Both the position numbers and the translations under genes were made by a program. The notes under the pieces were generated by a model that worked only from the letters and a program-made list of their open reading frames with translations, had not been told where the DNA came from and searched no databases. From positions 1,399 through 65,398 of the forward strand of contig CADBUJ010000066.1 in the NCBI GenBank assembly GCA_902797845.1: a stretch of 64,000 nt of DNA. The letters run 5' to 3'. Positions 1 through 49,849 of this stretch are shown here, one piece after another. Position 1 is the first letter of the stretch, and each line of letters opens with the position of its first letter. This DNA is from an uncultured Eubacteriales bacterium. Lineage in GTDB: Bacteria; Bacillota; Clostridia; Lachnospirales; Lachnospiraceae.

Positions 1-156
1 AAAACCCACAAAATATTGGCATTTTATCGGAAAAAACGAAAAAAATATTCTCAAAAACCAGCGATTTTGCCTTGATTTATTTTTTCATACACGTATAATT
101 AAAATGCAATAAAAGTTGCTAAAAAGTTATCAAAATTACAAATGCAGGAGGATAGT

Positions 157-1593: not shown

Positions 1594-1603
1594 GGAGGGG
1601 AAA

Positions 1604-6134: not shown

Positions 6135-6275
6135 TTTAAGCTCCTTTCGGAAATGCAATCTATATGATATCAAAAAGATATCATATAGATATTTGCATTG
6201 TCAATATATTTTTGTCGAGGGCTGTCGATTTCCATCGATTTATGTTTATTTACGGCCGTTCTTCCCTTACCTATA

Positions 6276-6839
6276 ATGCCCCTAAAGAAGGGAGGTGATG
6301 CCTGTATAGTTATAAAGATACCCGTGCTGACAGCGATCCTTTTGTGGGGCATGATCTCAGATCTTAAGACCGGTAAAGTAAAAAATAAGATAATCATTAC
6401 GGGTTTTGTTGCCGGTCCGGCCCTGGAGTTGATCTTTCCAAGTGCAGGCGGCCTTGCAGATAAGCTTATGGGGACGGCAGTACCCATATTGGCGTTGTTT
6501 ATATTACATGTGTTTTCCATGATGGGAGCAGGAGACATCAAGCTTATTTCCGTAACAGGAGCGTTTTTAGGGCTTAAGGCCGTCATAAATATTATGCTGG
6601 GAACGCTTTTTCTGGGCGGAGCAGTGTCAATATTTTTAATGTTAAAAAGAAGGATCCTCGCAGAAAGATTTAACTATTTCAGGGATTATGCGAGGCAAAG
6701 CCTCCGCAGAAGGAGGGTCATCCCTTATGATGATCTGACCTCTGAAGATAAAAGACACTTGTTCCATTTATCCCCATGTATCTTCATTGCAGCGGCAATG
6801 TATTGTTTAAAACTTTTGTTTTTTAAGGAGTTATTTTGA
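6276..6839 (+). CDS. A24 family prepilin peptidase (TadV/CpaA-like), copy 1
   Basis: ORF opens at TTG 6198, and the first ATG is at 6276. Polytopic membrane protein with two Asp motifs, ISDLKTGKV and GAGDIKL. Confidence 0.7.
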   Translation: MPLKKGGDACIVIKIPVLTAILLWGMISDLKTGKVKNKIIITGFVAGPALELIFPSAGGLADKLMGTAVPILALFILHVFSMMGAGDIKLISVTGAFLGLKAVINIMLGTLFLGGAVSIFLMLKRRILAERFNYFRDYARQSLRRRRVIPYDDLTSEDKRHLFHLSPCIFIAAAMYCLKLLFFKELF

Positions 6840-7708
6840 AAAGTATAAATCTGCATATTTTTGATAATGATATTAAGTATCTTGACAGGCTGGAGGATTA
6901 TCTTCTTTCCAGAAAAGACAATATATTTTCCGTGAAAACCCATACGGACATAAAAGAAGGCTATATTACAGAACACGGCATCAATCTTATCAGTGCATCA
7001 CTGGCAGAAGGGTGCGGAATAAGGCTTTCAAAGGAAAGGACCCTGATACTTCATGACGGCAGAATGGCGGAGGAACTGTTTGAGATAGAGGGCTTATATA
7101 AATATCAGCCCGGTGAGGCGATATACAAGAGACTTGTTGATATGTGCATGGACATAAGGGAAACAGTCCCCGGTATCTTTTATAAAAAAACAAAGGACAT
7201 GGAAATAACGGGCATATATTCGCCTGATCCTTTAAAAGACACATATTCTCTGGCGCTGGAACTTGCGGGAAAGGAAGCCGAATCGGAAAATGTTCTGCTT
7301 ATAGATCTGCAGGATTTCCCCCAAAAATGTTCGGCAGGAGGCATTCAGGATCTTTTTTATTACTTAAGCAGTCCTGGAGGAAAGATAGGGATCAAGATGC
7401 AGGAGGTAATTTTTAAAGACAAGGGCATATGGACCGTAAACGGAGGAGGCAGGCCCGGGGACATTAAGGACATAGATAAGAACACCTGGGAGAAGTTATT
7501 TAAGGCCATAGGAAGAGAAACTGATGTGGAAAGCCTGATAATCAATTTTTCCGGCCTACCTTCAGATATGGGGATCTTCGGTCTGTGCGACAAACTGCTG
7601 ATACCTGAAGGAGATCATGGGGATAAACGAGGCGAAGCCTTCAAAGATATGCTTAAGGGAATGGGAATGGAAGGAACAGTAAGCCGGACGGAGGAGATAT
7701 TTGTATGA
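6836..7708 (+). CDS. TadZ/CpaE-like pilus localisation protein with degenerate P-loop
   Basis: Sits immediately upstream of the CpaF ATPase with a 4-nt overlap. ITGIYSPDPLKDTYSLALELA...VLLIDLQD follows the MinD/ParA layout, but GGxGKT is replaced by PDPLKDT. Confidence 0.4.
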   Translation: MKSINLHIFDNDIKYLDRLEDYLLSRKDNIFSVKTHTDIKEGYITEHGINLISASLAEGCGIRLSKERTLILHDGRMAEELFEIEGLYKYQPGEAIYKRLVDMCMDIRETVPGIFYKKTKDMEITGIYSPDPLKDTYSLALELAGKEAESENVLLIDLQDFPQKCSAGGIQDLFYYLSSPGGKIGIKMQEVIFKDKGIWTVNGGGRPGDIKDIDKNTWEKLFKAIGRETDVESLIINFSGLPSDMGIFGLCDKLLIPEGDHGDKRGEAFKDMLKGMGMEGTVSRTEEIFV

Positions 7709-8940
7709 ATCCTGTGGAGGATCTCAAAGAGCAGATACGGGAAAGCATTCTTTCGGAATCCGAGGGCAGAGGCGCATTAACGGATGAGGAAGTAATCGGG
7801 ATAATCGACAGGAGTATACAAAGGTTGTCGGACAAAAGCTTTCTAAGTCTTAAGGAAAAGATGATCCTCAGAAAAGAGATATTTCATTCCATCAGGAAAT
7901 ATGACATCCTTCAGGAGCTTCTGGACAGGGATGATGTTACGGAGATCATGGTCAACGGGACAGAGAGCATTTTCTATGAGACCGGCGGAAGGATCATAAG
8001 GTGGAATAAGACCTTTGAAAATCAGGAGAAGATTTTTAATGTTATCCAGCGAATGGCGGGAAATAAGGACAGACCCGTGAATGCGGCTAATCCTGTTCTG
8101 GATGTGGTCCTGGATGACGGCTCCAGGGTAAATGCAGCTCTAAGACCGGTGGCCTTAAACGGACCGGTGATCACCATAAGGAGGTTCGGAAAAAGAAATA
8201 TTAAATTATCTGAACTTACAGACATGGGAGCATTATCGCGGGATGCTGCCGAGTTCTTAAAAAAGATCGTAGCATCAGGTTACAACATTTTTATATCGGG
8301 ATCCACAGGCAGCGGAAAAACAACATTTTTAAATGCCCTTTCCGAGTTTATTCCCCGTGACGAAAGAGTCATCACCATAGAAGATCCCGCTGAGTTACGC
8401 ATGGAAGATAGACCGAATCTCGTCAGACTTGAAACAAAAGGGAGAGATTCAGAAGGTGCAAAGAATATAACCATACGGGATCTCATAAGGACCAGTCTCA
8501 GAATGCGGCCGGACCGGATCATAGTGGGGGAAGTAAGAGGTGCGGAAACTGTTGATATGCTGCAGGCCATGAATACGGGGCATAAAGGTTCCATGTCTAC
8601 AGGGCATGCCAATTCTTCCGGCGATATGGTCGTAAGATTGGAGACTATGATGCTCATGGGAATGGATATCCCCCTTAAGGCAGTAAGGGAACAGATTGCT
8701 TCGGCCATTGATATAATCATCCATCTGGGACGCCTGAGGGACAAGAGCAGAAGAGTCCTTTCCATAGACGAGGTGCTTTGTGCAGATGACAGGGGCGTAA
8801 AGCTAAATAATCTGTTCTTCTTTCGGGAGGAGGGAGATTTAAATGATAAAGAAGTCAAAGGTCGGCTCAGAAAGTCGGGCAATAAGCTTAATAACCGGGA
8901 AAAGCTCAGGGAGGCCGGGATTGCAATGGAGGATATTTAA
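7705..8940 (+). CDS. tadA: CpaF/TadA family type IV pilus/secretion ATPase
   Basis: Walker A GSTGSGKTT, Walker B/Asp box RIIVGEVRG, His box GHKGSMSTGHA. 411 aa. Confidence 0.9.
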   Translation: MNPVEDLKEQIRESILSESEGRGALTDEEVIGIIDRSIQRLSDKSFLSLKEKMILRKEIFHSIRKYDILQELLDRDDVTEIMVNGTESIFYETGGRIIRWNKTFENQEKIFNVIQRMAGNKDRPVNAANPVLDVVLDDGSRVNAALRPVALNGPVITIRRFGKRNIKLSELTDMGALSRDAAEFLKKIVASGYNIFISGSTGSGKTTFLNALSEFIPRDERVITIEDPAELRMEDRPNLVRLETKGRDSEGAKNITIRDLIRTSLRMRPDRIIVGEVRGAETVDMLQAMNTGHKGSMSTGHANSSGDMVVRLETMMLMGMDIPLKAVREQIASAIDIIIHLGRLRDKSRRVLSIDEVLCADDRGVKLNNLFFFREEGDLNDKEVKGRLRKSGNKLNNREKLREAGIAMEDI

Positions 8941-9643
8941 AAAGGAGCTTCCGACTGCTGCATCATATTTGGCTCTGTCATTTTTATTCTGTTTGGCCTT
9001 TTACGGATCACCCAAGGGGCTTCTGATCACCATTCCTGCTGCGGCGCTGCTTTGGTTCTTTAATAAACAGGATAAGAAGATCTCAATGAAAAAAGAATTC
9101 AGTATGGAATTACGTGACGGGCTTACTGCATTAAAGGGCAGGATCTCGGGAGGTGCTTCTCTTGAAAATGCATTTTCTCTGGCATTAAAAGATCTGCAGA
9201 TGCAGTACAAAGGAGGGAAAGGGGCGATCATCGACGTATTTAACGATATATGCAGTATGCAGCAGGTCAATATTCCCATGGATGAATGCCTTCTTAAGGT
9301 ATCCCGGTATTACAGAGACGAATATCTTGAGGGATTTGTAAATATCGTTATCAGCATCAGGGAAAGAGGAGGGGATGTAGAGGCAGCAGTAAAAAGGACT
9401 ATCGATCGGATCACTGAAAAACTGGAACGGGAGCAGGAGGCCGGAACAGCAGTGGCAGGGAAGAAAAAGGAATTTCTTGTAATGAAAGCCATTCCTGTTC
9501 TTATACTGATATATTTGAGGCTTTTGGGAGGAGACATGACAGAGGTGCTTTATAAATCTTTTTCGGGGAAGGTCGCCATGACTATATGCCTGATGATTTA
9601 CATCAGCGCATGGCTTTGGGGAAGAAAGATACTGGAGTTTTAA
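8843..9643 (+). CDS. TadB-like type II secretion system F-family membrane protein
   Basis: Position directly after tadA, with TM segments flanking a soluble helical domain. The start is uncertain: ATG 8843 overlaps tadA by 98 nt, and an in-frame TTG lies near 8917. Confidence 0.6.
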   Translation: MIKKSKVGSESRAISLITGKSSGRPGLQWRIFKKELPTAASYLALSFLFCLAFYGSPKGLLITIPAAALLWFFNKQDKKISMKKEFSMELRDGLTALKGRISGGASLENAFSLALKDLQMQYKGGKGAIIDVFNDICSMQQVNIPMDECLLKVSRYYRDEYLEGFVNIVISIRERGGDVEAAVKRTIDRITEKLEREQEAGTAVAGKKKEFLVMKAIPVLILIYLRLLGGDMTEVLYKSFSGKVAMTICLMIYISAWLWGRKILEF

Positions 9644-9645
9644 GT

Positions 9646-11025
9646 ATGGATGCGGCTTTTTTATTCAGCATGCTTATGGTCATTGTTGTTCTTCTGGGGG
9701 AGCTTGTTTTGCGGATAAAAGGCAGGGGCCTCTGCGGAAGAAGACCTTTCTCTGCCCTTTCTGCATTTGTCTACGGCATCATTCCCTTTAAAGGAAAGAA
9801 AGACAGAGACAGGAGAAGCGATACGGAACGGCTGGGAATATTTATTACTTTTTTGTTTTTTGTAAATGTTCTGTCCGTCGTGATGGGGATCAAAGATATG
9901 GCATCCTCCCGGGAGATAACAGACAACACTCTTTTTAGGGGAGAAGCAGGGGGAGACACTAAAACAGTGGTCCTTGAGGCAAAGGGAGAAGGAATAGAAG
10001 AGGAGATCAGCTTCGAAGTGGAACCGAGGCAGTTATCATATGAGGAAGCTCAAAGGTATTTAGATAATGCCGGGGAAACGATTTTAAAGGAAGTTAAGGG
10101 CGAAAACAAAAGTCTGGAAAAGATAACCAAGGACCTGAACTTTGTCCGGACGCTGGAAAACGGAATGGTTGATGTCAGATGGATCCCGAAAGATCCTGAG
10201 CTTATAGACAGAAACGGAAAGATAAATACAGAAGCGCTTTCTTCCGAGTACGGAACAGCCACTTCAGTTTCCGCCATTTTAAGGGCGGGCACTGAGGAGA
10301 GGGAAACAGATATACATTTGGTCCTTTATAAAGCCTCTTCCAAAATGCCTTTCAGGGAACAGCTGCTTTATCTGTTGGAAGAAAAGGAAAAAAGCACCCG
10401 TGAAAACGGAGAGTTAAAACTGCCCGAGGAAATAGACGGCAGAAAAATAAGCTGGTCTGTTAAGGACGATGTGGGGCAAAAGGAGATACTGGCAGCAGGG
10501 TTGCTTATTATATGCCTGCTTCCGGTGGCGTGGATCCGAAAGAACAGAATTAAAGAAGAGGCAGCAGCAAAAGAGTTAAAAGAGGATTATCCGGATTTTG
10601 CATATAAGCTTGTCCTTTATCTTGATTCAGGTGTGGGAATAGCAAACAGCCTCTCCATGATACTTCGGGACATGGAAAAGAGAGGTTATACAGAAAGAAG
10701 ACTGCCTTTGGAATTAAGAAGATTAGTTGAAGATATAAGAAACGGAGGTGATATGGAAAAGGCCCTGGAGGGATTCGGAAATGCCTGCGGCTTTGTGGAA
10801 TATATGAGACTTTCAGGAATGGTATCCCATTTTGCAGCTACAGGAGACAGGGATATCAAAAGGGCTTTATCGGATACCGGCAGGGAAGCAATGATGATCA
10901 AAAACGAATTGCTGAAAAGAAAGGGTGAGGAGGCATCACTGAAACTTCTCGGACCCATAATGCTGCTAATGGTCTCAGTGATGATCGCAGTTATGTTTCC
11001 CGCCCTAAGCACCATCAGTTTTTAA
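9646..11025 (+). CDS. TadC-like T2SS F-family membrane protein with a large inserted soluble domain
   Basis: ATG 9646 lies 2 nt after the TadB stop. The C-terminal part (DYPDFAYKLVLYLDSGVGIANSL ... terminal TM) is GspF-like. About 300 aa of charged domain precede it. Confidence 0.6.
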   Translation: MDAAFLFSMLMVIVVLLGELVLRIKGRGLCGRRPFSALSAFVYGIIPFKGKKDRDRRSDTERLGIFITFLFFVNVLSVVMGIKDMASSREITDNTLFRGEAGGDTKTVVLEAKGEGIEEEISFEVEPRQLSYEEAQRYLDNAGETILKEVKGENKSLEKITKDLNFVRTLENGMVDVRWIPKDPELIDRNGKINTEALSSEYGTATSVSAILRAGTEERETDIHLVLYKASSKMPFREQLLYLLEEKEKSTRENGELKLPEEIDGRKISWSVKDDVGQKEILAAGLLIICLLPVAWIRKNRIKEEAAAKELKEDYPDFAYKLVLYLDSGVGIANSLSMILRDMEKRGYTERRLPLELRRLVEDIRNGGDMEKALEGFGNACGFVEYMRLSGMVSHFAATGDRDIKRALSDTGREAMMIKNELLKRKGEEASLKLLGPIMLLMVSVMIAVMFPALSTISF

Positions 11026-11037
11026 GGAGGAGAAGGG

Positions 11038-11205
11038 ATGGAACATATAAAAAGTTTTATAAAAGAAGAAGACGGAGTAGGAGTGGTGGAAGTGGTACTG
11101 ATCCTGGTCGTACTGATCGGCCTTGTGATCATTTTCAGGGATCAGCTTCAGGCACTGGTAGATAAATTATTTAAACGCGTTAACAGTGATGCAACAGCTC
11201 TTTAA
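11038..11205 (+). CDS. flp: Flp-family type IVc pilin precursor (55 aa, absent from the ORF track)
   Basis: AAGGAGGAG RBS then ATG 11038. Hand translation: MEHIKSFIKEEDGVGVVEVVLILVVLIGLVIIFRDQLQALVDKLFKRVNSDATAL. Charged leader, G/VGVVE cleavage-type motif, hydrophobic helix. Confidence 0.75.
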   Translation: MEHIKSFIKEEDGVGVVEVVLILVVLIGLVIIFRDQLQALVDKLFKRVNSDATAL

Positions 11206-12685
11206 ACGGAGAGCCGGCTACATGACCGTTTTTCTTACCATGCTTCTGGGCGTGATGATCTTTTTTCTCCTGGCCGTATACTCCGCTGTAAAAATCGACG
11301 GAGGGAAAAAGGATGCACTTATGAGAAGTGCCGTGAGTGTGCGGGGGATCCTGGGAGATCACTGCAGGCCTTTGTGGGACAGGTATGGAATACTGGCCAT
11401 AGACGGAGGCTATGACACAGGATCCTTAAGGTTTTCGGTTATGGAAAACAGGATCAGGGATCTTATAAACAAGAATGATTCTCTTATGCCATACGCAGGG
11501 GATGATGTTTTTGCTGAAGAGGTGGAAATAAAGCAGGCGGAGATGCTGATAGAGAGCTCGGGGCGCAATATGAAGGATGCCATCGGAGATTATGTGAGGG
11601 AAAGACTTGCTGTAAGAGCTGCAGCAGAGCTCTTCAGGGGCGTGGATGATGCAAATGAGGCACTTGAGAAAAAGGATTCCATGGTTGATGAGCTGGAGGA
11701 AGGGAAGAGGACAGAGGAGGATTATTACAGGGAAGCAGAAGGCACCTCCATGGAAGGTGAGACGGGCGAAGTGGCGCAAGACCCGGGCGATGTAAAGGAA
11801 GATGAGGATCCCAGAATAAGCATGAATAAACTTATGCGAAAAGGTTTTTTTGCGCTGGTCCTGCCGAAGGACTTCTCCCTGTCCCAAAGAAAAGCCGATC
11901 TAAGCTGCTGTTACAGGGAAGGAGCAAAAGGTGCAACCATGTTCATTTCCGATTTCAGATCTTATGACGATGTTGCCGGCGGCCTTTCCTCTTTCGGAGG
12001 ATTCTTCGAAAAGGCAGAGGAGGATATTTATCTAAACGAATATATTTTGGGAGTATTGGGTAATGCATTGTCTTTAAAGGAAGATACTTGTCTGGATTAT
12101 GAAACAGAATTCATCATCGGAGGCACAGCGTCTGATGAGGAAAATCTTAAGAAGACATTGAATAAGATCCTCTTACTGAGGACATCTCTCAATGGGGCCC
12201 ACATTCTGTCAGACAGCGTAAAATCCGGAGAAGCCAGTGCCGCAGCAACAGCTCTCACGCTGTGGTGGCCTCCTCTGCAGCCGGGAGTTTATATGCTTAT
12301 AGTTTCGGCCTGGGCTTATGGGGAAGGCCTTATAGATGTAAGGACACTGATGAAAGGCTATGGCGTACCCATGATCAAAAATGCATCCGAATGGAAATTG
12401 TCCTTTTCCGGGCTTTTAGCCGTTACAGAGACGGGCATTGACAGTCTGACGGGAGATGGAAGCAGAGGTCCGGGATATGAAGGGTATCTGAGGCTTTTAT
12501 TATATGCCATGGGAGAAACGGAAAAATACGAAAGGCTGGCCGGCATCATAGAGGCAAATATAAAAACAGTCCCCGGGTATAAGGAGTTCTGCATCAGAAA
12601 TGCAGTTACAGGTATAGATGCGGACTGCAGATATCACATCAACAGATTCGGCCCGTATACGGTCAATTACAAAGTCAGATATTAG
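11186..12685 (+). CDS. TadG/DUF5702-like pilus-associated protein
   Basis: N-terminus RRAGYMTVFLTMLLGVMIFFLLAV resembles the TadE/G-like N-terminal anchor. Large soluble domain with an acidic linker. GTG 11186 / ATG 11189 overlap the flp stop. Confidence 0.45.
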   Translation: MMQQLFKRRAGYMTVFLTMLLGVMIFFLLAVYSAVKIDGGKKDALMRSAVSVRGILGDHCRPLWDRYGILAIDGGYDTGSLRFSVMENRIRDLINKNDSLMPYAGDDVFAEEVEIKQAEMLIESSGRNMKDAIGDYVRERLAVRAAAELFRGVDDANEALEKKDSMVDELEEGKRTEEDYYREAEGTSMEGETGEVAQDPGDVKEDEDPRISMNKLMRKGFFALVLPKDFSLSQRKADLSCCYREGAKGATMFISDFRSYDDVAGGLSSFGGFFEKAEEDIYLNEYILGVLGNALSLKEDTCLDYETEFIIGGTASDEENLKKTLNKILLLRTSLNGAHILSDSVKSGEASAAATALTLWWPPLQPGVYMLIVSAWAYGEGLIDVRTLMKGYGVPMIKNASEWKLSFSGLLAVTETGIDSLTGDGSRGPGYEGYLRLLLYAMGETEKYERLAGIIEANIKTVPGYKEFCIRNAVTGIDADCRYHINRFGPYTVNYKVRY

Positions 12686-12704
12686 AAAGGAGGTGCAGAT
12701 ACAG

Positions 12705-13616
12705 ATGGCCTGGTCACACAGATCCAATATTATTTTTTCTTCTCCCCCTAAGAAAAGCACAAGGGGAATATGTCATGTCCGATGGATGGCAGCAGTTAAG
12801 TATAGATTTCATAAACACCATACAGAAATAAAAGAAAAGCAAAAGACAATGGTAAATAGGCCATCTGCATCTGCATCTCTTAAAGGAAGCATAACGGTGG
12901 AGGCTACTCTGGGACTCCCGCTTTTTATCATGGCCATGATTGTTCTGTCCATGGCAATACGCATCCATTCCATAGATTCCGGGATCAGCGACAGCCTTAT
13001 TTCCGCTTCCGTTTATGCAGAAGCGACGGAAGGGGGTGCAGAGCTTGCAGGAGCATCGGCATATCTTATGTCCTCCGTAACAGATGAGAAAGAAAGGGAG
13101 CCATTCTTCCATAGGAAGGTGATGCAAACGACTCCGCTTGTCTTGGGAGACGGAGATATGGCGTCTGTTTCCTGCATCACAGAAATATCAGGGATCAGCA
13201 CATTCGGTATAGGAATCATCCAAAAGGATCAGAGTGCATATGTGCCTCTTTTTATGGGATACGAACCCGGAACTGCAGAGGATACCGGAGAAGAGGAATA
13301 TATAAGAGCTTATATGACAGAATACGGAAGCGTATACCATATAAATATCGGATGCACATATCTCACAAGAAGACCAAAGGCATTAGAGCATGCTCTGGTG
13401 GGAAATGAAAGAAACAGCGGAGGCGGGAAGTACTATCCATGCAGGTTTTGCAGAAAAGCAGGAGAAAACGGCACATCAGTTGTATGGGTGACGGAATACG
13501 GGGACAGATATCATTGGGCGGCAGACTGCAAGGCGCTTAGGCCCGTTTACAAAGAAGTGATGATCAAAAAGGAAGGCAGTATAAGATGCTGCTCAAAGTG
13601 CGGGAATGGCAGCTGA
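12705..13616 (+). CDS. TadE-like pseudopilin with duplicated His/Cys-rich C-terminal module
   Basis: GGAGG sits 11 nt before ATG 12705 (alternative start ATG 12849). LKGSITVEATLGLPLFIMAMIVL is a TadE-type motif. The C-terminus carries VYHINIGC...YPCRFC and RYHWAADC...CCSKC. Confidence 0.5.
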   Translation: MAWSHRSNIIFSSPPKKSTRGICHVRWMAAVKYRFHKHHTEIKEKQKTMVNRPSASASLKGSITVEATLGLPLFIMAMIVLSMAIRIHSIDSGISDSLISASVYAEATEGGAELAGASAYLMSSVTDEKEREPFFHRKVMQTTPLVLGDGDMASVSCITEISGISTFGIGIIQKDQSAYVPLFMGYEPGTAEDTGEEEYIRAYMTEYGSVYHINIGCTYLTRRPKALEHALVGNERNSGGGKYYPCRFCRKAGENGTSVVWVTEYGDRYHWAADCKALRPVYKEVMIKKEGSIRCCSKCGNGS

Positions 13617-14031
13617 AATGATATTTAAAACACTGGCACTTATAATGACTGCCCTGGAGGGTATAAGGGATCTAAGGACAGGCGGGATATCCCCTGCAGC
13701 CGTGGCATGCTTTGCCGTACCCGGTGCCTGTTTTAAGGGCATGACAGGAGAGCCTCTATTTACGCTTCTTTCCGGAATGATTCCGGGGATGATCCTTATG
13801 GGAACAGCATTTGTTACAAGGGATAAACTGGGATACGGAGACGGCATTCTGTATTTGGGAATAGGTCTGCTGGTTGGGCTGTATCTGACTCTTGTGATCC
13901 TTTTTGTATCATTATTATTGGCAGGTACTACGGGAATGATCTTAATGGCTTTTGGAAAGCTCCGATTTAAAGACAGTCTGCCGTTCGGCCCGTTTACAGC
14001 GGTAGCGTGCCTGGGGGTGATCTTTATATGA
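13606..14031 (+). CDS. A24 family prepilin peptidase, copy 2
   Basis: 141 aa polytopic protein with Asp motifs IRDLRTGGI and GYGDGIL. Overlaps the upstream stop. Confidence 0.7.
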   Translation: MAAEMIFKTLALIMTALEGIRDLRTGGISPAAVACFAVPGACFKGMTGEPLFTLLSGMIPGMILMGTAFVTRDKLGYGDGILYLGIGLLVGLYLTLVILFVSLLLAGTTGMILMAFGKLRFKDSLPFGPFTAVACLGVIFI

Positions 14032-14492
14032 ATAAAATACGGAAAAAAGATCAAAAGGGCAGCATCACAGTGGAAGCGTGCGTGATCGTCCCCATAACAG
14101 TGATTCTCTTTATGATCACAGTATGCCTGGTACTTTTTGTTTATGATCACATGATAATGAAACATGCTGCAGGAAAATTGGCCATAAGACTTGCAGAGGC
14201 ATATGCTCTTGATCTCGAAGGAGAAGATATCATAGAAGAGATGACAGCAGAGCTGGAAAAAACCTTTATCATCTCGTGCGATCCCGTAATAAATGTGGAA
14301 AGAGAAGGAGAATGGATGGGGGTAGGAAAAAGCTTTAAAGTGACCATATCAGCAGGCATAAAAAAACAGCTTTCTTTTTTCGGAAGCACATTTTTTAGAG
14401 AGCATTCGGTATATGGAGCGAGCTATATGTGGGATCTTAAAAGCTACAGATTCTTAATGGAAAACGGAAAGGAGATCACAGGAACGGAATAA
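14028..14492 (+). CDS. TadE-like pseudopilin
   Basis: ATG 14028 overlaps the peptidase stop (ATGA). The N-terminus MNKIRKKDQKGSITVEACVIVPITVILFMI is a TadE-type G/SITVE motif plus TM helix. Confidence 0.6.
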   Translation: MNKIRKKDQKGSITVEACVIVPITVILFMITVCLVLFVYDHMIMKHAAGKLAIRLAEAYALDLEGEDIIEEMTAELEKTFIISCDPVINVEREGEWMGVGKSFKVTISAGIKKQLSFFGSTFFREHSVYGASYMWDLKSYRFLMENGKEITGTE

Positions 14493-14495
14493 TTT

Positions 14496-15626
14496 ATGGA
14501 AAACATTTCAGGCAGAAGAAAAGAGATATTGGTAATAAAGCAAAAGGATAGAAGAGATCATACCCTGGAGGAAAGGATGCTGGAAAATGTCTGCGGCTGT
14601 ACGATACTGCCGATGACAGTACGGGAAAGAGACGGAGAGAAAAGCTATATTTATAACATCGGAAAGGGCAGGTGCCTGGCCGATTTGACGGATCAGGGGA
14701 TTTCTGCGGATATGGCTTTTAAGGTCTTAAATACACTGAAAGACTACAGGAAAGATTGCGGTAACTATTTTCTGGATCCATGCGGGATGATATTGGAGCC
14801 CAGGAAAATATTTGAAGATGAGAACGGAATTAAATTTCTTTATAAACCCGGGCAGAAAAGCGAGATAAAGGAAGAGATCAGAAAGCTTTGTACATTTTTC
14901 TTTAAAAATGCAGATTACAGTAACGGAGAATTGCTTGATATCCTCCAAAAGGCAATGATGGATCTGTCAAAGGAGGATTTTTCACTGGAAATGCTTGGCT
15001 GCTCCGGAGAAGAAAAGGAAGAACAAAGGCAGCAGTTGAAAGCCGGTTCCCGGGAAAGCGATGTCTATCATAATACATTTTTATACCTTCCGGATAATGC
15101 GGATGAAGAGCCGGAGGGGGCAGAGGAATCTGCAGTAAAGATATCCGAAAGAATACAGGATAATTATGTAAAAGAAAGATCTCAAAAATTCTTAAAAGGT
15201 ATACGGGGAAGAATAGGAACAGTATTTAAAAAGGAAAGGGAAGATGACTTTTGGGATCCTGAAGAGGCAGATGAGATCATATTCCATAACGGAATCCCTT
15301 CTTTTGTAAAAGAAAACCCGGATATACATATAGTTCTGAGAAATACGGAAGACAGAAGAGAAGTGCACGAGGTGGCATCTTTCCCTGCATCCATAGGGAA
15401 AACGCCCGGTGAAGCAGATGTTGTAATAAAGGATTCCTTTGTTGATAAAAGGCATGCGCTTATGGAATATGACGGAGGAATAGTTTCTTTGCGGGATCTT
15501 GGATCTGTATACGGAACATATGTAAACGGAAAGAAAATAAAAAAGAATGCAGCGGTGGAGATCAGGGACGGAGACAAGGTGGGCTTTGCCGGAATGAGCT
15601 ACGAAGCCGGATTTATAAGAGCATAG
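14496..15626 (+). CDS. FHA domain protein (C-terminal FHA, N-terminal domain of unknown function)
   Basis: C-terminus FPASIGKTPGEADVVIKDSFVDKRHALMEY...LRDLGSVYGTYVNGKKI...IRDGDKVGFAG matches FHA core motifs (G-R/K, S-xx-H, N-G). Confidence 0.75.
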   Translation: MENISGRRKEILVIKQKDRRDHTLEERMLENVCGCTILPMTVRERDGEKSYIYNIGKGRCLADLTDQGISADMAFKVLNTLKDYRKDCGNYFLDPCGMILEPRKIFEDENGIKFLYKPGQKSEIKEEIRKLCTFFFKNADYSNGELLDILQKAMMDLSKEDFSLEMLGCSGEEKEEQRQQLKAGSRESDVYHNTFLYLPDNADEEPEGAEESAVKISERIQDNYVKERSQKFLKGIRGRIGTVFKKEREDDFWDPEEADEIIFHNGIPSFVKENPDIHIVLRNTEDRREVHEVASFPASIGKTPGEADVVIKDSFVDKRHALMEYDGGIVSLRDLGSVYGTYVNGKKIKKNAAVEIRDGDKVGFAGMSYEAGFIRA

Positions 15627-16149: not shown

Positions 16150-16182
16150 GAACATATGCGTTAATAAGTAATCATTTCAAAG

Positions 16183-16214
16183 AAAAGCCCGACGGATCAT
16201 TCCGCCGGGCTTTA
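16183..16214. terminator. Bidirectional intrinsic terminator between convergent HIT and yhfZ-like genes
   Basis: AAGCCCGACGG-loop-CCGCCGGGCTT stem flanked by A-run and T-run. Confidence 0.65.
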
Positions 16215-16251: not shown

Positions 16252-17181
16252 TCAGTAGGAAGGTATGAGTTTCTGCTCTATAACATCCTTTTGTATCTTG
16301 CTTATTTTTTTAATATTAAGAACAGCTTTAATAACATTTTTTGCAGGACTGTCCTTTTTTACAAGGATCGCTGCATCCTCGGCAGGAGATATTGATTTCT
16401 CCAGTTCTCCGGCAGCAGGGATCATGGAACAGTTCTCTATGCCCGCATTTCTGATATTATCGAAGGACCATACGGTAGCATCGATCTCTCCCTTGACCAG
16501 CTTGGGCAATATCTGGGAGTACTTAAGCCTTACAAACTTAACATCTTTGCTGCCTGCTGCCAGCTTATTCAGATTGACATGATCCACTGAGTCTTCGTCA
16601 ACTCCCAGTCTCATGCCGTCTTCTATTTCTGTCTGGCCCTTTCTGCTGAAAATGATCCCGCTTAAAGAAACATAAGTCTTAGGCCCGAATTCTGCCAGCA
16701 GTTCCAGATCGTCATATGATGACAGAGCGGCCTGAGCGGCCATTTTGGAACATACGGCGAAGTCCATTTTTCCTTCTTTTAGATAATCGATACGCGCTTT
16801 TCCGCCTCTTACATAGGAGAGCTTTAATAAAACACCGGCATCGTCGAAGTTTTCATAAAGTCCGGTAGCCAGCCCCTCTAAAGCAGCAGAATAGAGAAGC
16901 GGCATTTCGCCGGTTATCCATGGAGTCGGAGAAAGATTGAATAATTTGACATAATCAATTTCCTCCACAACTGTACCCTGATGTCCGTGGGATTCCAGAG
17001 TAAGAGCTCCTGCTTCCTCAAAGTATTTTAAAGCGGATTGAATAGTCCCGGCACCGGCCTTAAGCTGATTTGCTAACACCTGGTTGGTGGGGATCGTATC
17101 CTTCTTCTCTAAGAGAAGAAGGATACGGGACATTTTCATTATTACTTCGCCTTGCTTTGAGAGTAATTGATCATGTATCAT
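16252..17181 (-). CDS. YhfZ-like putative transcriptional regulator (N-terminal HTH plus substrate-binding-like domain)
   Basis: N-terminal HTH-like TNQVLANQLKAGAGTIQSALKYFEEAGAL. AAAGGGG RBS precedes ATG 17181. Last gene of the RLP operon. The family call is from memory of YhfZ proteins. Confidence 0.45.
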   Translation of the reverse strand: MIHDQLLSKQGEVIMKMSRILLLLEKKDTIPTNQVLANQLKAGAGTIQSALKYFEEAGALTLESHGHQGTVVEEIDYVKLFNLSPTPWITGEMPLLYSAALEGLATGLYENFDDAGVLLKLSYVRGGKARIDYLKEGKMDFAVCSKMAAQAALSSYDDLELLAEFGPKTYVSLSGIIFSRKGQTEIEDGMRLGVDEDSVDHVNLNKLAAGSKDVKFVRLKYSQILPKLVKGEIDATVWSFDNIRNAGIENCSMIPAAGELEKSISPAEDAAILVKKDSPAKNVIKAVLNIKKISKIQKDVIEQKLIPSY

Positions 17182-17195
17182 CTGCGGCCCCTTTA

Positions 17196-18728
17196 TCAGC
17201 CCTGAAGCTTTTTAAGAGTCTGGAATACAGGATACATTCCGCCCTTTACGAGCTCCTGCTGTACCTCGTAAACTTCCTGGTATTTTGCAGTATTCTCTGC
17301 GTTGGGATCATATTCGCCAAGAACACCGAGTGTCTTTAATACGGTCTCGCCAAGGTCATCGATATCACCTACAGCATAAGCTGCAAGAAGAGCATCCACC
17401 ATAACGGCGCCTTCTTTTCTCTTCATGGTGGTTACGTGTGCATCAAGCATATCAGCCTTGATCTGATTCCAGAGATCAGACTTGGAACCGCCCTCTGTGA
17501 TGATAACTTCATCAACAGGGATGCCGTTTGCCTTAAGGGAATCTGTAAGTCCCTTGTATTCGTAAGCGATGGACTCAAGGAGAGCTCTCCACATTTCGCC
17601 TCTGGTGGTGTTCATGGTCATATTAAGGAAGCATCCGCTTGCACCGTCAAGTGTTCCTGTACCGCCTGTAAGATAAGGCATAAAGATAGTTCCGTTGGAT
17701 CCTGCAGGCACCTGAGATGCTTCTGCCTGGATCTCATCGTAGAAGCTGTTGTCGTCTACTCTTCCGCAGATATTGTCTCTGAACCAGCGAAGAGAAAGAC
17801 CGCCTGTTCTTATATAACCCCAGTAGAAATATGTATCGGGAAGAGTTCCGATGGAGAACAGAAGATCTGTGTTCTTTGTAAGATCCTCGTTGATGCCGTC
17901 AACCATTATGGTAAACATGGCAGCAGTTCCGGCAACGTCTGCAGCCATACCTGCCTTAACAAGTCCGCAGCCGATATTGCTCTGCATGGTGTCGCCGGCG
18001 CCGGCAGCAATAGGGATACCTGCGGGAAGACCCGTTGCAGCAGCAGCTTCTTCTGTAAGAGTTCCTATTATATCGTAGGGCTTAACGATCTTGGGAAGAT
18101 ACTCCATAGGGATCTCAAGCTCATCCATCTGTCTCTTTGACCATTCCTTCTTGATGGCATCATAACCGATAAGCCATCCTGAAAGAGTAGCCCAGTCTAT
18201 ACAGATATCGTCTGCCTTAAGGCCTGCCAGTCTTGAAAGAACATAAGGGCCGTTGTTGATAAACTTGGCGCCTCTCTCCTGGAAATCCTTATTGTTCTTA
18301 AGGAACCATCTTGCAATAAGGGGAGGATCAAAAGGATCAACAGCGTTATTTCCGCTTTCTTCAATCCAGTAAGGCTCGCAGTTTGCCTTTACCCACTCAG
18401 CATCCTCTGCACATCTGGAATCCAGATAAGGGATATAAGGAGTGATGGCCTTGCCGTCTTTGTCTACACCGAGGATACCGCAGATGATGCCGTCGCCTGA
18501 GATGGCGCGTACTTCGTTGGGATCGATACCGCTCTTGTCAAGGCAGTTCTTGATGCCCTTAAGTACGGAATCAAGATATTTGTCTGCATCCATTTCTGCC
18601 CAGCCTGCCTGAGGATAGCTTATCTCGGTGGGGATCATATCTTCTGCAACGCAGTCGAAGTTGTCGTTGTAGATAGTTGTTTTTGTACTCTGTGTACCAC
18701 AGTCAAAACCGATATAGTATTTGCTCAT
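17196..18728 (-). CDS. FGGY family carbohydrate kinase (xylulokinase-like)
   Basis: N-terminus YIGFDCGTQSTK and C-terminal TEGGSKSDLWNQIKADM are the FGGY signatures. 510 aa. Confidence 0.85.
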   Translation of the reverse strand: MSKYYIGFDCGTQSTKTTIYNDNFDCVAEDMIPTEISYPQAGWAEMDADKYLDSVLKGIKNCLDKSGIDPNEVRAISGDGIICGILGVDKDGKAITPYIPYLDSRCAEDAEWVKANCEPYWIEESGNNAVDPFDPPLIARWFLKNNKDFQERGAKFINNGPYVLSRLAGLKADDICIDWATLSGWLIGYDAIKKEWSKRQMDELEIPMEYLPKIVKPYDIIGTLTEEAAAATGLPAGIPIAAGAGDTMQSNIGCGLVKAGMAADVAGTAAMFTIMVDGINEDLTKNTDLLFSIGTLPDTYFYWGYIRTGGLSLRWFRDNICGRVDDNSFYDEIQAEASQVPAGSNGTIFMPYLTGGTGTLDGASGCFLNMTMNTTRGEMWRALLESIAYEYKGLTDSLKANGIPVDEVIITEGGSKSDLWNQIKADMLDAHVTTMKRKEGAVMVDALLAAYAVGDIDDLGETVLKTLGVLGEYDPNAENTAKYQEVYEVQQELVKGGMYPVFQTLKKLQG

Positions 18729-18743
18729 TAAATAAGTCTCCTT

Positions 18744-19376
18744 TCACAAAAGTTCTTTAAAAGAGGTTATAAATCTGCTGCTGTAGGGTTTGATCTTTTC
18801 GTAATCACCCTGGGAAACTCCGTCATACACACCGACCACATCGAAGCCTGCGGATGATGCGACCCGCGCGGCATCGGGAGAATCCTCGAATACAGTACAT
18901 TCCGATGGCTGTGCGCCGGTCCTTTCGGCACATATGAGATATATCTCCGGACTGCTCTTATCGGTGGTTATATCCTCGATGGATATGATGTGATCGAAAT
19001 ATCCTATTATTCCGGTACGCTCAAGGGCGGGCATTATAAAATCCCTTTCCATAGCGGTTGCAAGACATATGTGCTTGCCTTCCGTTTTGAGCTTTTCCAG
19101 ATATTCCGTTACATATTCCCTAAGGGGGATCACCTTGTGGTAATTGACGCCCATTCTGGACCGCCATGCCTTAACGATATCCATAACATCATCTTCCAGG
19201 GAAAACTTTTCCTTGAAGAAGGCGGCTCCGTTCTTTACGCCCATGGGCTTTACTATATCGAAGATATCGTCCTGGGCGGGGAAGCCTCTCTTAATAAGAT
19301 CGTTGTTCATGGTCTCGATCCAGTATTTGGGAGAATCAAAGATCGTTCCGTCAAAATCAAATATGGCAGTTTTCAT
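18744..19376 (-). CDS. HAD superfamily phosphatase
   Basis: Motif I AIFDFDGTIFDS (DxDxT), with later FEDSPDAARVA motifs. 210 aa. Confidence 0.85.
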   Translation of the reverse strand: MKTAIFDFDGTIFDSPKYWIETMNNDLIKRGFPAQDDIFDIVKPMGVKNGAAFFKEKFSLEDDVMDIVKAWRSRMGVNYHKVIPLREYVTEYLEKLKTEGKHICLATAMERDFIMPALERTGIIGYFDHIISIEDITTDKSSPEIYLICAERTGAQPSECTVFEDSPDAARVASSAGFDVVGVYDGVSQGDYEKIKPYSSRFITSFKELL

Positions 19377-19385
19377 ATTATTTCC

Positions 19386-20699
19386 TTAATTTGTAAGTTC
19401 GAAGATTGATTTATTGGGATCATAAACTCCCCAGATATCAAGTGCAGCCTGAAGTTCAGGATGATCCTTGGCATATTCTCTTATGTCTATATCCTGAAGC
19501 CAGGAATCAGCTGCCTGACGAAGGGCCTCAACACCGGCCTTAAGTCCCATGGGATGAGCATGCATTGCTGCACCGGCACCAAGCATTACGTCGGGACCGA
19601 GGTCATCCATGATGGCGGGAACCATACCGGGATTAAGTCCTGCTGCAGGGCTGGGGAAGGTATTCTTCATGCCGTTGAACTCGGAGAGCATGCTCTGAGC
19701 GGAACGTATATATCTGTCCTTAAGACCGGGAACCTTTCCGTAAGCGCAAGGATAAACAACGATGTCAGCACCTTCAAGTCTCATAAACTTACCGAATACG
19801 AGAGTGGATGAGATACCGCCTGTGGGTGAAGTATAGCCTGCACCTGCGTAGCAGGGATGTGCAAGAAGCGGTACGTTGATGGAATCGTCTGCAGCCAGAG
19901 CGCCTGTAAGTCCGTAACCGGAAGCATGGGAGTTGATCATAAGTGCTCTTGCACCCATTTCAACAGCTCTGTGAGCCTTTTCCAAAGCTATATCCTGACG
20001 ATCGGTGATGTTGGGGATATAGATCGTGCGGTGACCTGTCTCCTCGTAAACTCTTTCAGCAACCTTCAGGCAGGCCTCAACTCTTTCATAGAAAGGAGCA
20101 TAAACGGGATCTGCAATAAGCTCGTCGTCCTTAACAAGGTCAAGACCGGCGCGGCACAGTTTTTCAAACTGCTTTTCGATTACGCTGATGGGGATACCTG
20201 TACAAGGCTTGATCATGGCAAGGACAGGAGGTCTGTCGATACATCCTGTAAGCTCTCTTATACCCTGAACGCCGAAGCGGGGGCCATGGAATCCGTCCGT
20301 GAATTTCTTGGGGAACTCCAGATCAAGGAGCTTAAGATCCTTACTCATTGAAATGTTACCGAAAACGGTAGATAAGAGCTCAGGGATCTGCTGTCCGATA
20401 TTCTCCCAAGGGAAAGCTATCTGCATGATAAATTCTCTTTCCTTATCGGGGCAGTCAAGCTCATATCCGGGTACGTTGTAAACAGATATAACTCTGCCTA
20501 CGTGACCTCTTCTGACTTCGTCTGTCTCGTCGGGTACACGCATCCAAGTACCGGTGGTCTGCTCTACAGCCATTGCTCCGGCACGCATAAGGATGTCAAC
20601 TGTTTCCGCCTTTGCCCAATAGGTTCCCACGATAAAGTCGTCCATGTTCAGGGATTCCCTTTGGCAAAAGATAATAGGATCATATTTTGCTTTGCCCAT
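19386..20699 (-). CDS. RuBisCO large-subunit family protein, form IV (RuBisCO-like protein)
   Basis: Aligns by eye to RbcL: LSTVFGN, IKPCTGI (vs IKPKLGL), GLDLVKDDE (vs GLDFTKDDE), GAGAAMHAHPMG (vs GGGTLGHPWG). The HR pair of RbcL (HIHRAMH) is HPCY here. No small subunit gene nearby. Confidence 0.85.
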   Translation of the reverse strand: MGKAKYDPIIFCQRESLNMDDFIVGTYWAKAETVDILMRAGAMAVEQTTGTWMRVPDETDEVRRGHVGRVISVYNVPGYELDCPDKEREFIMQIAFPWENIGQQIPELLSTVFGNISMSKDLKLLDLEFPKKFTDGFHGPRFGVQGIRELTGCIDRPPVLAMIKPCTGIPISVIEKQFEKLCRAGLDLVKDDELIADPVYAPFYERVEACLKVAERVYEETGHRTIYIPNITDRQDIALEKAHRAVEMGARALMINSHASGYGLTGALAADDSINVPLLAHPCYAGAGYTSPTGGISSTLVFGKFMRLEGADIVVYPCAYGKVPGLKDRYIRSAQSMLSEFNGMKNTFPSPAAGLNPGMVPAIMDDLGPDVMLGAGAAMHAHPMGLKAGVEALRQAADSWLQDIDIREYAKDHPELQAALDIWGVYDPNKSIFELTN

Positions 20700-20883
20700 T
20701 TCTGTTCCTCCTTTTTCAATCTTCAGTATTTTGAATTTTGCATATTCATCTTATTCCTCTTCCATCATCACAGTCAAGGGAAAACGGGCCCTGAAGAGAA
20801 AAAGTACAATCCTGGGAAAAACGCAGATCTGGGCATAAAAAAATTCGGAAGGCAAGCCTTCCGAATCCTTTTCGTTCGATGGA

Positions 20884-21057
20884 TCATTCTCCTGCTGAAA
20901 TAGCACCAACGGGGCAGTTGCCTGCGCAAGAACCGCAATCGATACAGGAATCAGCATCAATAACATATTGAGAATCGCCCTGAGAGATAGCACCAACGGG
21001 ACATGAATCTGAGCATGCGCCGCAGCTGATGCAATCTGATGAAATTACAAAAGCCAT
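20884..21057 (-). CDS. fdx: Clostridial-type 2x[4Fe-4S] ferredoxin (57 aa, absent from the ORF track)
   Basis: GGAGG RBS. Hand translation: MAFVISSDCISCGACSDSCPVGAISQGDSQYVIDADSCIDCGSCAGNCPVGAISAGE. Two CxxCxxCxxxCP motifs. Confidence 0.85.
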   Translation of the reverse strand: MAFVISSDCISCGACSDSCPVGAISQGDSQYVIDADSCIDCGSCAGNCPVGAISAGE

Positions 21058-21220
21058 ATATAACCTCCTAAAATCCTTCTACTGCTACATGTTACTCTGG
21101 AATTCTGCACTTCCGTCATTGATTATAATCCAAAAGAAAACGGAAATCAAGCAAGCGGCTTGCAAAACTGGGACTTTCAGGGTATACTTTAGCAAAATCG
21201 GTGAGGAAGGAGGCACAAAA

Positions 21221-21427
21221 ATGGTACAGATCACAAGAGATACACTTATAGGCGAACTCATCTCCATCGATCCCGAAGTCGCGCCTATTCTTATGGATAT
21301 AGGAATGCATTGTCTGGGATGCCCGTCTTCCCAGATGGAATCCATAGGGGAGGCAGCCATGGTACATGGTATCGAACCTGATTCGTTGGTTGACAGTATA
21401 AATGAGTTTCTTGCTTCAAAAGGCTGA
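21221..21427 (+). CDS. DUF1858 domain protein (hybrid-cluster-protein-associated redox disulfide family)
   Basis: GAGGAAGGAGG RBS before ATG 21221, so the ORF track start at 21029 is an upstream extension. MHCLGCPSSQMESIGEAA CxxC motif. 68 aa. Confidence 0.6.
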   Translation: MVQITRDTLIGELISIDPEVAPILMDIGMHCLGCPSSQMESIGEAAMVHGIEPDSLVDSINEFLASKG

Positions 21428-36189: not shown

Positions 36190-36427
36190 TTTATCTCTGC
36201 CTTCTGTAAATCTTTTTGAAAATAATACAAATGGATTATAGCATAGGGCCGACGCAGGCAAAAGTGCTGTACTCACAAAGTGGGGGTATCAAAGCTGTCT
36301 GAAAGGCTATGTGCATGAATAGGGAAGCCCACATCATCTCTACATCATTTCTGGTGGCATAAAACATGAAAAATGTAATTTATAATTACAATATTTGTAA
36401 AAAAAATACAAAAAACGAGAAAATAAA

Positions 36428-36456
36428 TTGACATTGCGATTTAAGAATGCTATTAT
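36428..36456 (+). promoter_or_regulatory. Consensus sigma-A promoter driving the AT-rich island
   Basis: TTGACA, a 17-nt spacer, then TATTAT with TG at the extended -10 position. AAAGGAGGAGG RBS follows before ATG 36482. Confidence 0.6.
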
Positions 36457-36481
36457 TCGTACACAAAGGAGGAGGCTAGGA

Positions 36482-49830: not shown

Positions 49831-49849
49831 GATAAGGCGTTAAGCCGCG

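Follow-up and report, generated by a model that had tools for sequence, protein, structure and literature searches.

Described reactions of RuBisCO-like proteins (RLPs) include enolisation by MtnW, 1,3-isomerisation in Rhodospirillum rubrum, decarboxylation or transcarboxylation of apionate-derived compounds and oxygenation in the case of hamamelose (PMC10176493, PMC6302742), and the enolase, isomerase, decarboxylase/transcarboxylase and oxygenase activities established so far belong to a handful of proteins (PMC10176493). Each newly solved RLP has brought unexpected chemistry and ideas on how RuBisCO evolved. Here, we describe an RLP encoded in a compact operon with an FGGY carbohydrate kinase, a haloacid dehalogenase (HAD) class IA phosphatase and a YhfZ-family regulator, within a 64,000-nucleotide stretch of DNA from an uncultured Eubacteriales bacterium of the Lachnospiraceae (contig CADBUJ010000066.1; this whole stretch is referred to as the window). 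The reading that we favour, and to which we give an even chance, is a pathway in which the kinase feeds the RLP, the RLP acts through an enediolate and the phosphatase follows, all under YhfZ control.

The RLP gene (19386–20699, minus strand) encodes a 437-aa protein with an N-terminal domain (RuBisCO_large_N, PF02788, 1.4e-09) and a C-terminal TIM-barrel catalytic domain (RuBisCO_large, PF00016, 7.3e-41). The top Foldseek matches of its AlphaFold model (pLDDT 85, pTM 0.86) are all RuBisCO or RLP structures, the best being MtnW 2oek (TM 0.83/0.88, 36% identity), and sequence comparison likewise points to MtnW as the nearest characterised protein (2oej, 5.9e-82). Residues were compared across 120 homologs (47–100% identity) aligned with the four MtnW sequences in the PDB and with spinach RbcL. 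RuBisCO numbering, used below unless query positions are given, comes from a spinach RbcL sequence in which 19 of 19 canonical positions checked out.

All 120 homologs share E60, T65, W66, N123, M173, K175, P176, C177, K201, D203, E204, H294 and K334, and the P1-phosphate site (T65, W66, G381, and G403) is likewise invariant. The carbamylation and Mg2+ site, K175 and H294 are intact in the query (K190, D192, E193, K164, and H281 in its own numbering), and the two motifs singled out in the original prediction from this DNA, VKDDE (K190, D192, and E193) and KPCTG (K164–G168), are both present and do not vary among the homologs. The P2 (second-phosphate) site is always substituted, with R295 replaced by P or L, H298 by A or S, and H327 by V or I; at K177, R295, H298, H327, and S379 the query has C, P, A, V, and A. 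Because R295, H298, and H327 are replaced throughout, the substrate of the RLP would be a monophosphate, and the alignment supports a form IV protein, as had been predicted, that is unable to bind ribulose 1,5-bisphosphate (RuBP) at its second phosphate. Two details of that prediction need amendment. It held that the protein lacks the HR pair, of which the Arg is indeed replaced by Pro, but the His is kept (H281, equivalent to the invariant H294). It also stated flatly that the protein is not a carboxylase, which goes beyond the evidence in that the equivalents of E60, N123, and loop-6 K334, which it overlooked, are invariantly retained. Throughout the RLP clade, every residue involved with the enediolate or with the carboxylate derived from CO2 is retained.

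MtnW/YkrW of Bacillus and Geobacillus (2oek and 2zvi) resembles the query in fold, at 35–37% identity, and in K175, the carbamylated K201, D203, E204, H294, a Pro at 295, and the loss of the P2 site. The two differ at the catalytic base: Asn115 of the query aligns with Lys98 of Geobacillus kaustophilus MtnW (RuBisCO position 123), and this position is Asn in 120 of 120 homologs and Lys in four of four PDB MtnW sequences. Lys98 is reportedly the base that abstracts the C1 proton, a role said to have been assigned by Imker and colleagues in 2007 (a study cited in PMC10176493). Across the signature positions, MtnW has G60, K123, G/A176, M/V/C177, and S334, whereas the query has E60, N123, Pro176, a clade-invariant Cys177, and K334. 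Both MtnW equivalog models score the RLP below their cut-offs (365.2 bits on NF007095, cut-off 409; 317.8 bits on TIGR03332, cut-off 513.6). A neighbour-joining tree of 116 superfamily representatives, built without bootstrap, places the MtnW-type sequences in a clade of their own (21 tips) with the query clade outside it, while proteins with the ENCK signature form a grade rather than a clade. By these sequence criteria, the RLP of the operon is not MtnW. We also considered Cys177 as a unique catalytic marker and rejected it, as Cys occurs there in several other RLP clades, including Alicyclobacillus MtnW.

Other known members of the superfamily were compared with the query as well. The R. 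rubrum RLP, a 5-methylthio-D-ribulose-1-phosphate 1,3-isomerase, converts a 2-ulose 1-phosphate via an enediolate with no carboxylation, and a reaction of this kind, isomerisation without carboxylation, is the most likely one for the query RLP; the R. rubrum protein differs in belonging to the DeepYkr clade and to sulfur salvage, and the sequences are not closely related, the related PDB entry 3qfw matching the query at only 1.5e-33. The D-apionate RLPs comprise OiaX and the related transcarboxylase/hydrolase RLPs (Carter et al. 2018, as cited in PMC10176493 and PMC6302742). Like the RLP in our proposal, OiaX works on a kinase-made keto-sugar-acid monophosphate in a catabolic cluster, and the OiaX-like clade shares E60, N123, and K334 with the query clade. 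OiaX-like proteins differ in mostly keeping R295 and H327 and in having Ser at 177, and the query reaches 168.4 bits on the OiaX model (cut-off 700). OiaX-type apionate systems use a DUF1537-type kinase in place of an FGGY kinase. Form III RuBisCO (Thermococcus kodakarensis 3a12 and Pyrococcus 2cwx) has the same fold and shares E60, T65, W66, N123, K175, P176, K201, D203, E204, H294, and K334 with the query, which lacks its K177, R295, H298, H327, and S379 and scores well below the form III model (222.6 bits vs a cut-off of 497) and PRK04208 (209 vs 438).

A superfamily search across 1.84 billion representatives returned 2016 members. The RLP clade is compact, with no more than two representatives sharing 50% identity or more with the query. 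Its catalytic core is identical in all five groups of loci described below, and the second-shell positions (295–298, 335–337, 379–383, and 401–405) are group-specific, with types A and B nearly alike; we therefore read the clade as carrying out one chemistry on a few related substrates. Full-text literature searches returned no description of an RLP–FGGY cluster or of this RLP clade, although a mention in Tabita 2007, Erb 2012, or Carter 2018 is possible. The subfamily thus appears to be an orphan, probably with a new substrate and possibly with a new reaction, and it is of interest as a clade that lies near the MtnW enolases yet carries the CO2-handling residues of RuBisCO.

The four genes lie on the minus strand in the order RLP, HAD-IA phosphatase (18744–19376; 210 aa), FGGY kinase (17196–18728; 510 aa, termed type 1 here), and YhfZ-family regulator (16252–17181; 309 aa, HTH_41 plus YhfZ_C), separated by gaps of 9, 15, and 14 nt, with a Shine-Dalgarno sequence in front of every start codon. 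This agrees with the reading frames and the 9–15 nt packing first recorded for the locus, and Pfam and NCBIfam matches confirm the RbcL-family, HAD, FGGY, and YhfZ assignments. An intrinsic terminator (16176–16213, stem 16184–16213, minus strand), with a 13-bp G+C-rich stem followed by a U-tract, closes the operon 39 nt past the yhfZ stop codon (−27.3 kcal/mol, z = −4.1 on folding). The terminator of an upstream ferredoxin gene (20837–20872, minus strand; a 16-bp stem and then U7; −22.4 kcal/mol, z = −3.8) marks the 5' boundary. Both minus-strand terminators were missed by a consensus scan and confirmed by folding; the same scan found no convincing terminator within the operon. Between the ferredoxin terminator and the RLP start lies a candidate sigma-70-like promoter (20748–20777, minus strand; TTGACT, 18 nt, TAAGAT), which rests on a consensus match at 9 of 12 positions. 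These signals support a single, terminator-bounded transcription unit with a candidate YhfZ operator in front.

No S-box, T-box, or other Rfam element was found before the operon or anywhere in the window, and no tRNAs were found in the window. The flanking genes are unrelated and on the opposite strand: Tad-pilus genes, an FHA protein, and HinT on one side, and Nth, a VanW-like protein, an Lrp-type regulator, an aminotransferase, TrmL, MurI, and a zinc ABC transporter on the other. Directly beside the operon is a divergent pair (20884–21427) made up of the gene for a 57-aa 2x[4Fe-4S] ferredoxin (20884–21057, minus strand; FdxA_fam, 93 bits) and a reading frame at 21029–21427 (plus strand) with a C-terminal hybrid-cluster-protein-associated redox-disulfide domain. 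No recurrent gene cluster occupied the corresponding position beside the RLP in its relatives, among which no ferredoxin-specific search was made.

The kinase, whose specificity is unassigned, has strong Pfam matches (FGGY_N, 2e-40; FGGY_C, 2.6e-21) and falls below the equivalog cut-offs for XylB (253.5 bits vs 380), GntK (202.7 vs 648), and LsrK (140.8 vs 528); its best PDB match is 3ifr, a protein of unknown function (8.5e-40). Kinase orthologs of 66–72% identity adjoin the RLP in type-A loci. The phosphatase matches HAD_2 (PF13419, 1.4e-25), has the nucleophile motif DFDGT (D7-F-D9-G-T), and passes HAD-SF-IA-v3 (43.8 bits, cut-off 29.4) but no NCBIfam equivalog model, the best of these being PGMB/YqaB (69 bits). 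Its nearest relatives are class IA sugar-phosphate phosphatases and beta-PGM-like proteins, with the Thermotoga sugar-phosphate phosphatase TM_1254 as best PDB match (3.7e-16), and orthologs of 52–55% identity adjoin the RLP in L001, L004, L024, and L027.

We analyzed the gene neighbourhoods of 106 loci by clustering their reading frames and annotating the recurrent clusters; neighbour counts by identity class refer to loci dereplicated at 95% and to genes within four of the RLP. Among the 16 loci with an RLP at least 57% identical to the query, an FGGY kinase occurs in 14, YhfZ in 11, HAD-IA in six, and a short-chain dehydrogenase/reductase (SDR) and AP_endonuc_2 in five each. In the 12 loci at 50–56% identity, a phosphatase (10) and GlpABC-like subunits (7–8) predominate, and 26 of the 48 loci below 50% again have an FGGY kinase, which overall stands beside the RLP in 54 of the 106 loci. 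Because the three types of FGGY kinase are mutually only ∼25% identical, the RLP–FGGY pairing has arisen repeatedly, at least three times.

Five architectures recur across these loci, which we call types A to E. Type A, found in the window, in Lachnotalea glycerini (L001), and in L004, L024, and L027, combines a type-1 FGGY kinase and HAD-IA with either YhfZ or a SorC regulator, often with DUF1097 and sometimes with AP_endonuc_2; SorC/LsrR-type regulators accompany it in L001, L004, and L024. The trio of RLP, HAD-IA, and type-1 FGGY recurs on independent contigs at 65–86% RLP identity. In type B (L006–L009, L023, L025, and L026), YhfZ, an SDR, and a type-2 FGGY kinase are joined by an optional GPH symporter, Gat/Ula-family EIIC, AP_endonuc_2, PHP phosphatase, or LUD domain protein. 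Some close relatives without HAD-IA have an SDR in its place.

Type C occurs in Lachnospiraceae (Faecalicatena, Mediterraneibacter, Schaedlerella, and Hespellia), where a Gat/Ula-type phosphotransferase system (PTS) and a GlpA/B/C-like dehydrogenase stand in for the kinase. It contains UPF0047, GlpA-, GlpB-, and GlpC-like dehydrogenase subunits, PHP, and a Cof-type HAD, together with EI, HPr, EIIA, EIIB, EIIC-GAT, and a PucR regulator. The cluster spans 12–14 genes with a complete PTS that has its own EI and HPr (L012, 4940–17394; also L011, L013–L022, L037, and L038), cultured gut strains are among its hosts, and its gene content suggests a pathway for a polyol or a sugar acid that has yet to be characterised. 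Type D, from Thermacetogenium and others, carries two copies of PEP_hydrolase, a ComB-type phosphatase, and UPF0261. In Thermacetogenium phaeum (L002, 9067–15252; also L045, L058, L059, L065, and L074), the order is G3P_antiterm, RLP, PEP_hydrolase (PF09370), ComB-type 2-phosphosulfolactate phosphatase, UPF0261, and PEP_hydrolase, and these RLPs form a sister group. Type E, on about 20 sediment metagenome contigs, has a type-3 FGGY kinase and a saccharopine-dehydrogenase-like oxidoreductase; this FGGY–RLP–oxidoreductase triad, from sediment and freshwater, is often accompanied by a TetR or ArsR regulator (L066, L069, L071–L073, L076–L078, L082, L084–L086, L090, L093, L094, L096, L097, L099, L101, L105, and L106).

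A phosphorylating device, often with an oxidoreductase, therefore recurs around the RLP, as FGGY alone (A), FGGY plus SDR (B), PTS plus GlpABC-like dehydrogenase (C), or FGGY plus saccharopine-dehydrogenase-like enzyme (E). From their gene content, these sets would represent several routes to a keto-sugar phosphate. Across the subclades, the RLP is also accompanied by phosphatases, which come from four unrelated families (HAD-IA, PHP, Cof-type HAD, and ComB). The partners are informative in themselves, with kinases recruited at least three times, a PTS and dehydrogenase as substitutes, and four phosphatase families. The function of the cluster is open to direct experiment, since cultured organisms such as Lachnotalea glycerini and members of Faecalicatena, Mediterraneibacter, and Schaedlerella possess it.

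The Brucella erythritol pathway offers a parallel at the level of families, with the FGGY kinase EryA, the GlpD-like dehydrogenase EryB, the AP_endonuc_2 isomerase EryC, and the SorC regulator EryD. FGGY, GlpA/GlpD-like dehydrogenase, AP_endonuc_2, and SorC proteins also surround the RLPs of our relatives, whereas the Brucella pathway has no RLP. By analogy, this kit suggests polyol or tetrulose/pentulose phosphate chemistry.

The regulator is a full-length YhfZ protein (NF041241, 293.9 bits, cut-off 260; PF14503 YhfZ_C, 1.1e-61; HTH_41) and matches E. coli YhfZ (2ozz, 1.3e-22), an uncharacterised GntR-like regulator with the same HTH_41 plus YhfZ_C architecture whose gene lies in an unrelated cluster (yhfS–yhfZ). 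The upstream regions of YhfZ-associated RLP operons have a 22-bp palindrome in common, with the family consensus AATATTCAGTATACTGAATATT. A position weight matrix built from seven loci, excluding the window, and applied at a threshold of 16 bits, found this YhfZ-box in 13 of 14 YhfZ-bearing loci, where it precedes either the RLP or the gene that opens the operon; loci without YhfZ had it in only four of 92 cases, all weak (16–17 bits), despite five times more sequence. The candidate operator of the window (20718–20739) is an imperfect palindrome, AAAATTCAAAATACTGAAGATT on the minus strand, and at 21.0 bits it is the best match in the 64 kb, the next best site scoring 11.8; two of 300 shuffled windows reached 21 bits anywhere. 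It closely precedes the RLP, in the interval from the −10 hexamer to the ribosome-binding site. Such a placement fits repression, and the operon is probably repressed by YhfZ through this predicted operator.

Extra copies of the box occur in L033 (3062 and 4027), L040 (4327 and 5375), and L009 (13890), where they precede AP_endonuc_2, FGGY, yhfZ itself, and a gene before the LUD-domain protein, all within the same clusters; this arrangement suggests small YhfZ regulons with autoregulation. Our literature search found no published operator or ligand for YhfZ, and the palindrome is the first candidate operator for this regulator family.

Taken together, the operon is best explained as a self-contained unit, probably YhfZ-repressed, that would convert a small keto-sugar or keto-sugar acid. 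The FGGY kinase would phosphorylate a terminal hydroxymethyl group to give a monophosphate, most likely one with the motif CH2OP–C(=O)–CHOH– (a 2-ulose 1-phosphate or equivalent). The RLP would bind this compound at its P1-phosphate site and at Mg2+ held by carbamylated K190, D192, and E193, and proton abstraction would then yield a metal-stabilised enediolate that collapses to a different product, most likely by isomerisation, epimerisation, or tautomerisation and, as a second choice, by loss of CO2 from a beta-keto acid. HAD-IA would dephosphorylate the product, as MtnX follows MtnW, and YhfZ would sense the substrate or an intermediate and bind the palindrome over the transcription start. 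Substrate class, step order, reaction type, and the role of the repressor are what we infer here, and the analysis itself shows the gene families, the structure of the operon, the residue pattern, the conservation of synteny, and the distribution of the motif.

The proposed position of the keto group draws on the type-C context. GlpA/GlpD-type enzymes oxidise the carbon next to CH2OP, as in the conversion of glycerol-3-phosphate to dihydroxyacetone phosphate or the action of Brucella EryB on erythritol-4-phosphate. Such an oxidation would give CH2OP–C(=O)–CHOH–, the motif of all known RuBisCO and RLP substrates, which is why we place a 2-ulose 1-phosphate or equivalent after the kinase; by analogy with these dehydrogenases and with the known RLP substrates, a CH2OP–C(=O)– motif in the substrate is most likely.

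Several observations weigh against this pathway. Ten of the 16 closest relatives lack the phosphatase, which may be accessory, a safety valve for sugar-phosphate stress, or a step that comes earlier. The window operon also has neither a transporter nor a dehydrogenase that would account for the source of the kinase substrate, and the oxidoreductases of the other subclades could follow the RLP instead of preceding it. Finally, the retained E60, N123, and K334 would fit (de)carboxylation at least as well as a simple isomerisation. The original prediction of a kinase, RLP, phosphatase route is well supported in its first link, given the kinase in 14 of 16 dereplicated close relatives, in 54 of 106 loci, and from at least three independent lineages, and less so in its last, the phosphatase not being a constant partner (HAD-IA in six of 16); the order itself is plausible.

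The strongest competitor, which we nevertheless regard as unlikely, at perhaps one chance in five, is that the RLP is a beta-keto-acid-phosphate decarboxylase, either like OiaX or functionally like UlaD/SgbH. The substrate of the kinase would then be a 3-keto sugar acid, comparable to the 3-keto-L-gulonate that LyxK phosphorylates, CO2 would leave via the enediolate, and the resulting ketose phosphate would be dephosphorylated or handed to isomerases. E60, N123, and loop-6 K334, which handle the carboxyl group in RuBisCO, are invariant here, and MtnW has lost all three; because the OiaX-like clade (P0194 and others, with OiaX as best NCBIfam model at 345–524 bits) keeps them too, the (de)carboxylation reading stays alive, although the residue argument is based on two functional classes only. 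Type-B relatives add an SDR, FGGY, AP_endonuc_2, and a Gat/Ula-family EIIC or GPH symporter, a set that, with AP_endonuc_2 being the family of SgbU/UlaE, resembles the yia/ula sugar-acid pathways of E. coli. The score of the RLP on the OiaX model, less than a quarter of the cut-off, points the other way, as does the lack of a reductase, an epimerase, and a transporter in the window operon, and the GlpABC-like context puts the keto group beside the phosphate, not beta to a carboxylate.

We think it improbable that the operon instead swaps a phosphate in a biosynthetic route. HAD-IA would open the route by acting on a pentose or tetrose phosphate of central metabolism, the FGGY kinase would re-phosphorylate the free ketose at its other end, and beta-elimination of phosphate from the enediolate could let the RLP form a specialised compound, perhaps a 1-deoxy-2,3-diulose like 4,5-dihydroxy-2,3-pentanedione (DPD; autoinducer-2, AI-2). 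Beta-elimination of the P1-phosphate from the enediolate is a side reaction of RuBisCO, the missing transporter and dehydrogenase would suit an endogenous substrate, and SorC/LsrR-type regulators accompany three type-A clusters. The proposal is purely inferential, however, many relatives carry transporters (PTS, GPH symporter, EIIC, and DUF1097), and the kinase is only weakly LsrK-like (6.5e-22, with a bit score far under the cut-off). AI-2 metabolism of the LsrK/LsrR kind was also considered as the principal explanation and rejected, given this weak similarity and the fact that SorC is one of two alternative regulators.

Slightly more improbable still is a role in adding or exchanging CO2 on a ketose 1-monophosphate, R-CHOH-CO-CH2OP + CO2 + H2O -> 3-phosphoglycerate + R-COOH. 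It draws on the invariance of every residue with a direct part in enolisation, CO2 addition, hydration, and cleavage, namely K175, carbamylated K201, D203, E204, H294, K334, E60, and N123; among the catalytic and binding residues of RuBisCO, changes are limited to the second-phosphate site, K177, T173, and S379. By analogy, the operon would be a miniature counterpart of phosphoribulokinase, RuBisCO, and CbbZ, with FGGY in place of phosphoribulokinase, the RLP in place of RuBisCO, and HAD-IA in place of phosphoglycolate phosphatase. If true, a monophosphate carboxylase would split a sugar into 3-phosphoglycerate and an organic acid in a redox-neutral manner in CO2-rich anaerobic habitats.

Methionine salvage, in which the RLP would be a divergent MtnW acting as 2,3-diketo-5-methylthiopentyl-1-phosphate (DK-MTP-1-P) enolase, HAD-IA would take the role of MtnX, and mtnK, mtnA, mtnB, and mtnD would lie elsewhere, is very unlikely. 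MtnW is the nearest characterised relative, its gene also adjoins that of a HAD-superfamily phosphatase, so that the RLP–HAD pair mirrors mtnW–mtnX, and JGI assigns the DK-MTP-1-P enolase name to homologs (P0003, P0004, P0013, P0028, P0033, and others). The loss of the catalytic lysine and model scores under the cut-offs mark this label as an over-annotation, and it is unsupported for such genes in gut and rumen metagenomes. The differences at positions 60, 123, 176, 177, and 334 and the separate place in the tree, the check proposed in the original prediction, add to this, and the setting differs as well: the genes here encode an FGGY kinase, not an APH-type MtnK, and a class IA HAD with no MtnX model among the best 25 of its 30 NCBIfam matches. 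As that prediction had noted, MtnK/MtnA/MtnB/MtnD-type Pfam families are absent, none being found among window reading frames of at least 150 aa (antisense shadow frames were not scanned). There is no S-box or T-box before the operon, no recurrent mtn-like gene cluster among the 106 related loci, and MtnD depends on O2, so that its step would be impossible in the hosts, which are anaerobic Clostridia. That the four genes are adjacent by accident is hardly credible, since the variation in regulator, phosphatase, and oxidoreductase partners among relatives is outweighed by the 9–15 nt gaps with a single promoter and a single terminator, by the trio that recurs on independent contigs, and by the repeated origin of the RLP–FGGY link.

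Elsewhere in the window, a DAO-family FAD oxidoreductase with a BFD-like [2Fe-2S] domain is followed by a Pyr_redox_2 protein (142–2860, plus strand). The oxidoreductase and the GlpA-like dehydrogenases found beside the RLP in Lachnospiraceae are members of one enzyme family, but the former lies 14 kb from the operon, with no evidence of a link. A Tad/Flp-type pilus region (6198–15626, plus strand) begins with an A24 prepilin peptidase (6198–6839) and a TadA/VirB11-like ATPase (7705–8940) and continues through five reading frames with no NCBIfam family match to an FHA-domain protein (14496–15626).

A low-GC island at 36000–40000 (0.35–0.36, vs ∼0.46 elsewhere) carries an AAA_21 ATPase (36428–37738), an RloB-like protein (37732–38358), and a DUF4417 protein (38602–39354), and by its gene families resembles a horizontally acquired defence-type pair. 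Toward the end of the window, two surface proteins (46564–52224, plus strand), one of 1,088 aa (DUF285/LRR, thioester TED, SpaA, and FctA) and one VWA-like of 724 aa, lie just upstream of a giant adhesin. The latter is an uninterrupted frame of at least 3,935 codons (52194–64000, plus strand) that runs past the window end; its product, a very large surface protein of the Gram-positive kind, has 12 Cna_B domains, nine FctA (Spy0128-like isopeptide) domains, and DUF7601. From their domain content, the surface genes at 46564–64000 look like a pilus or adhesin locus.

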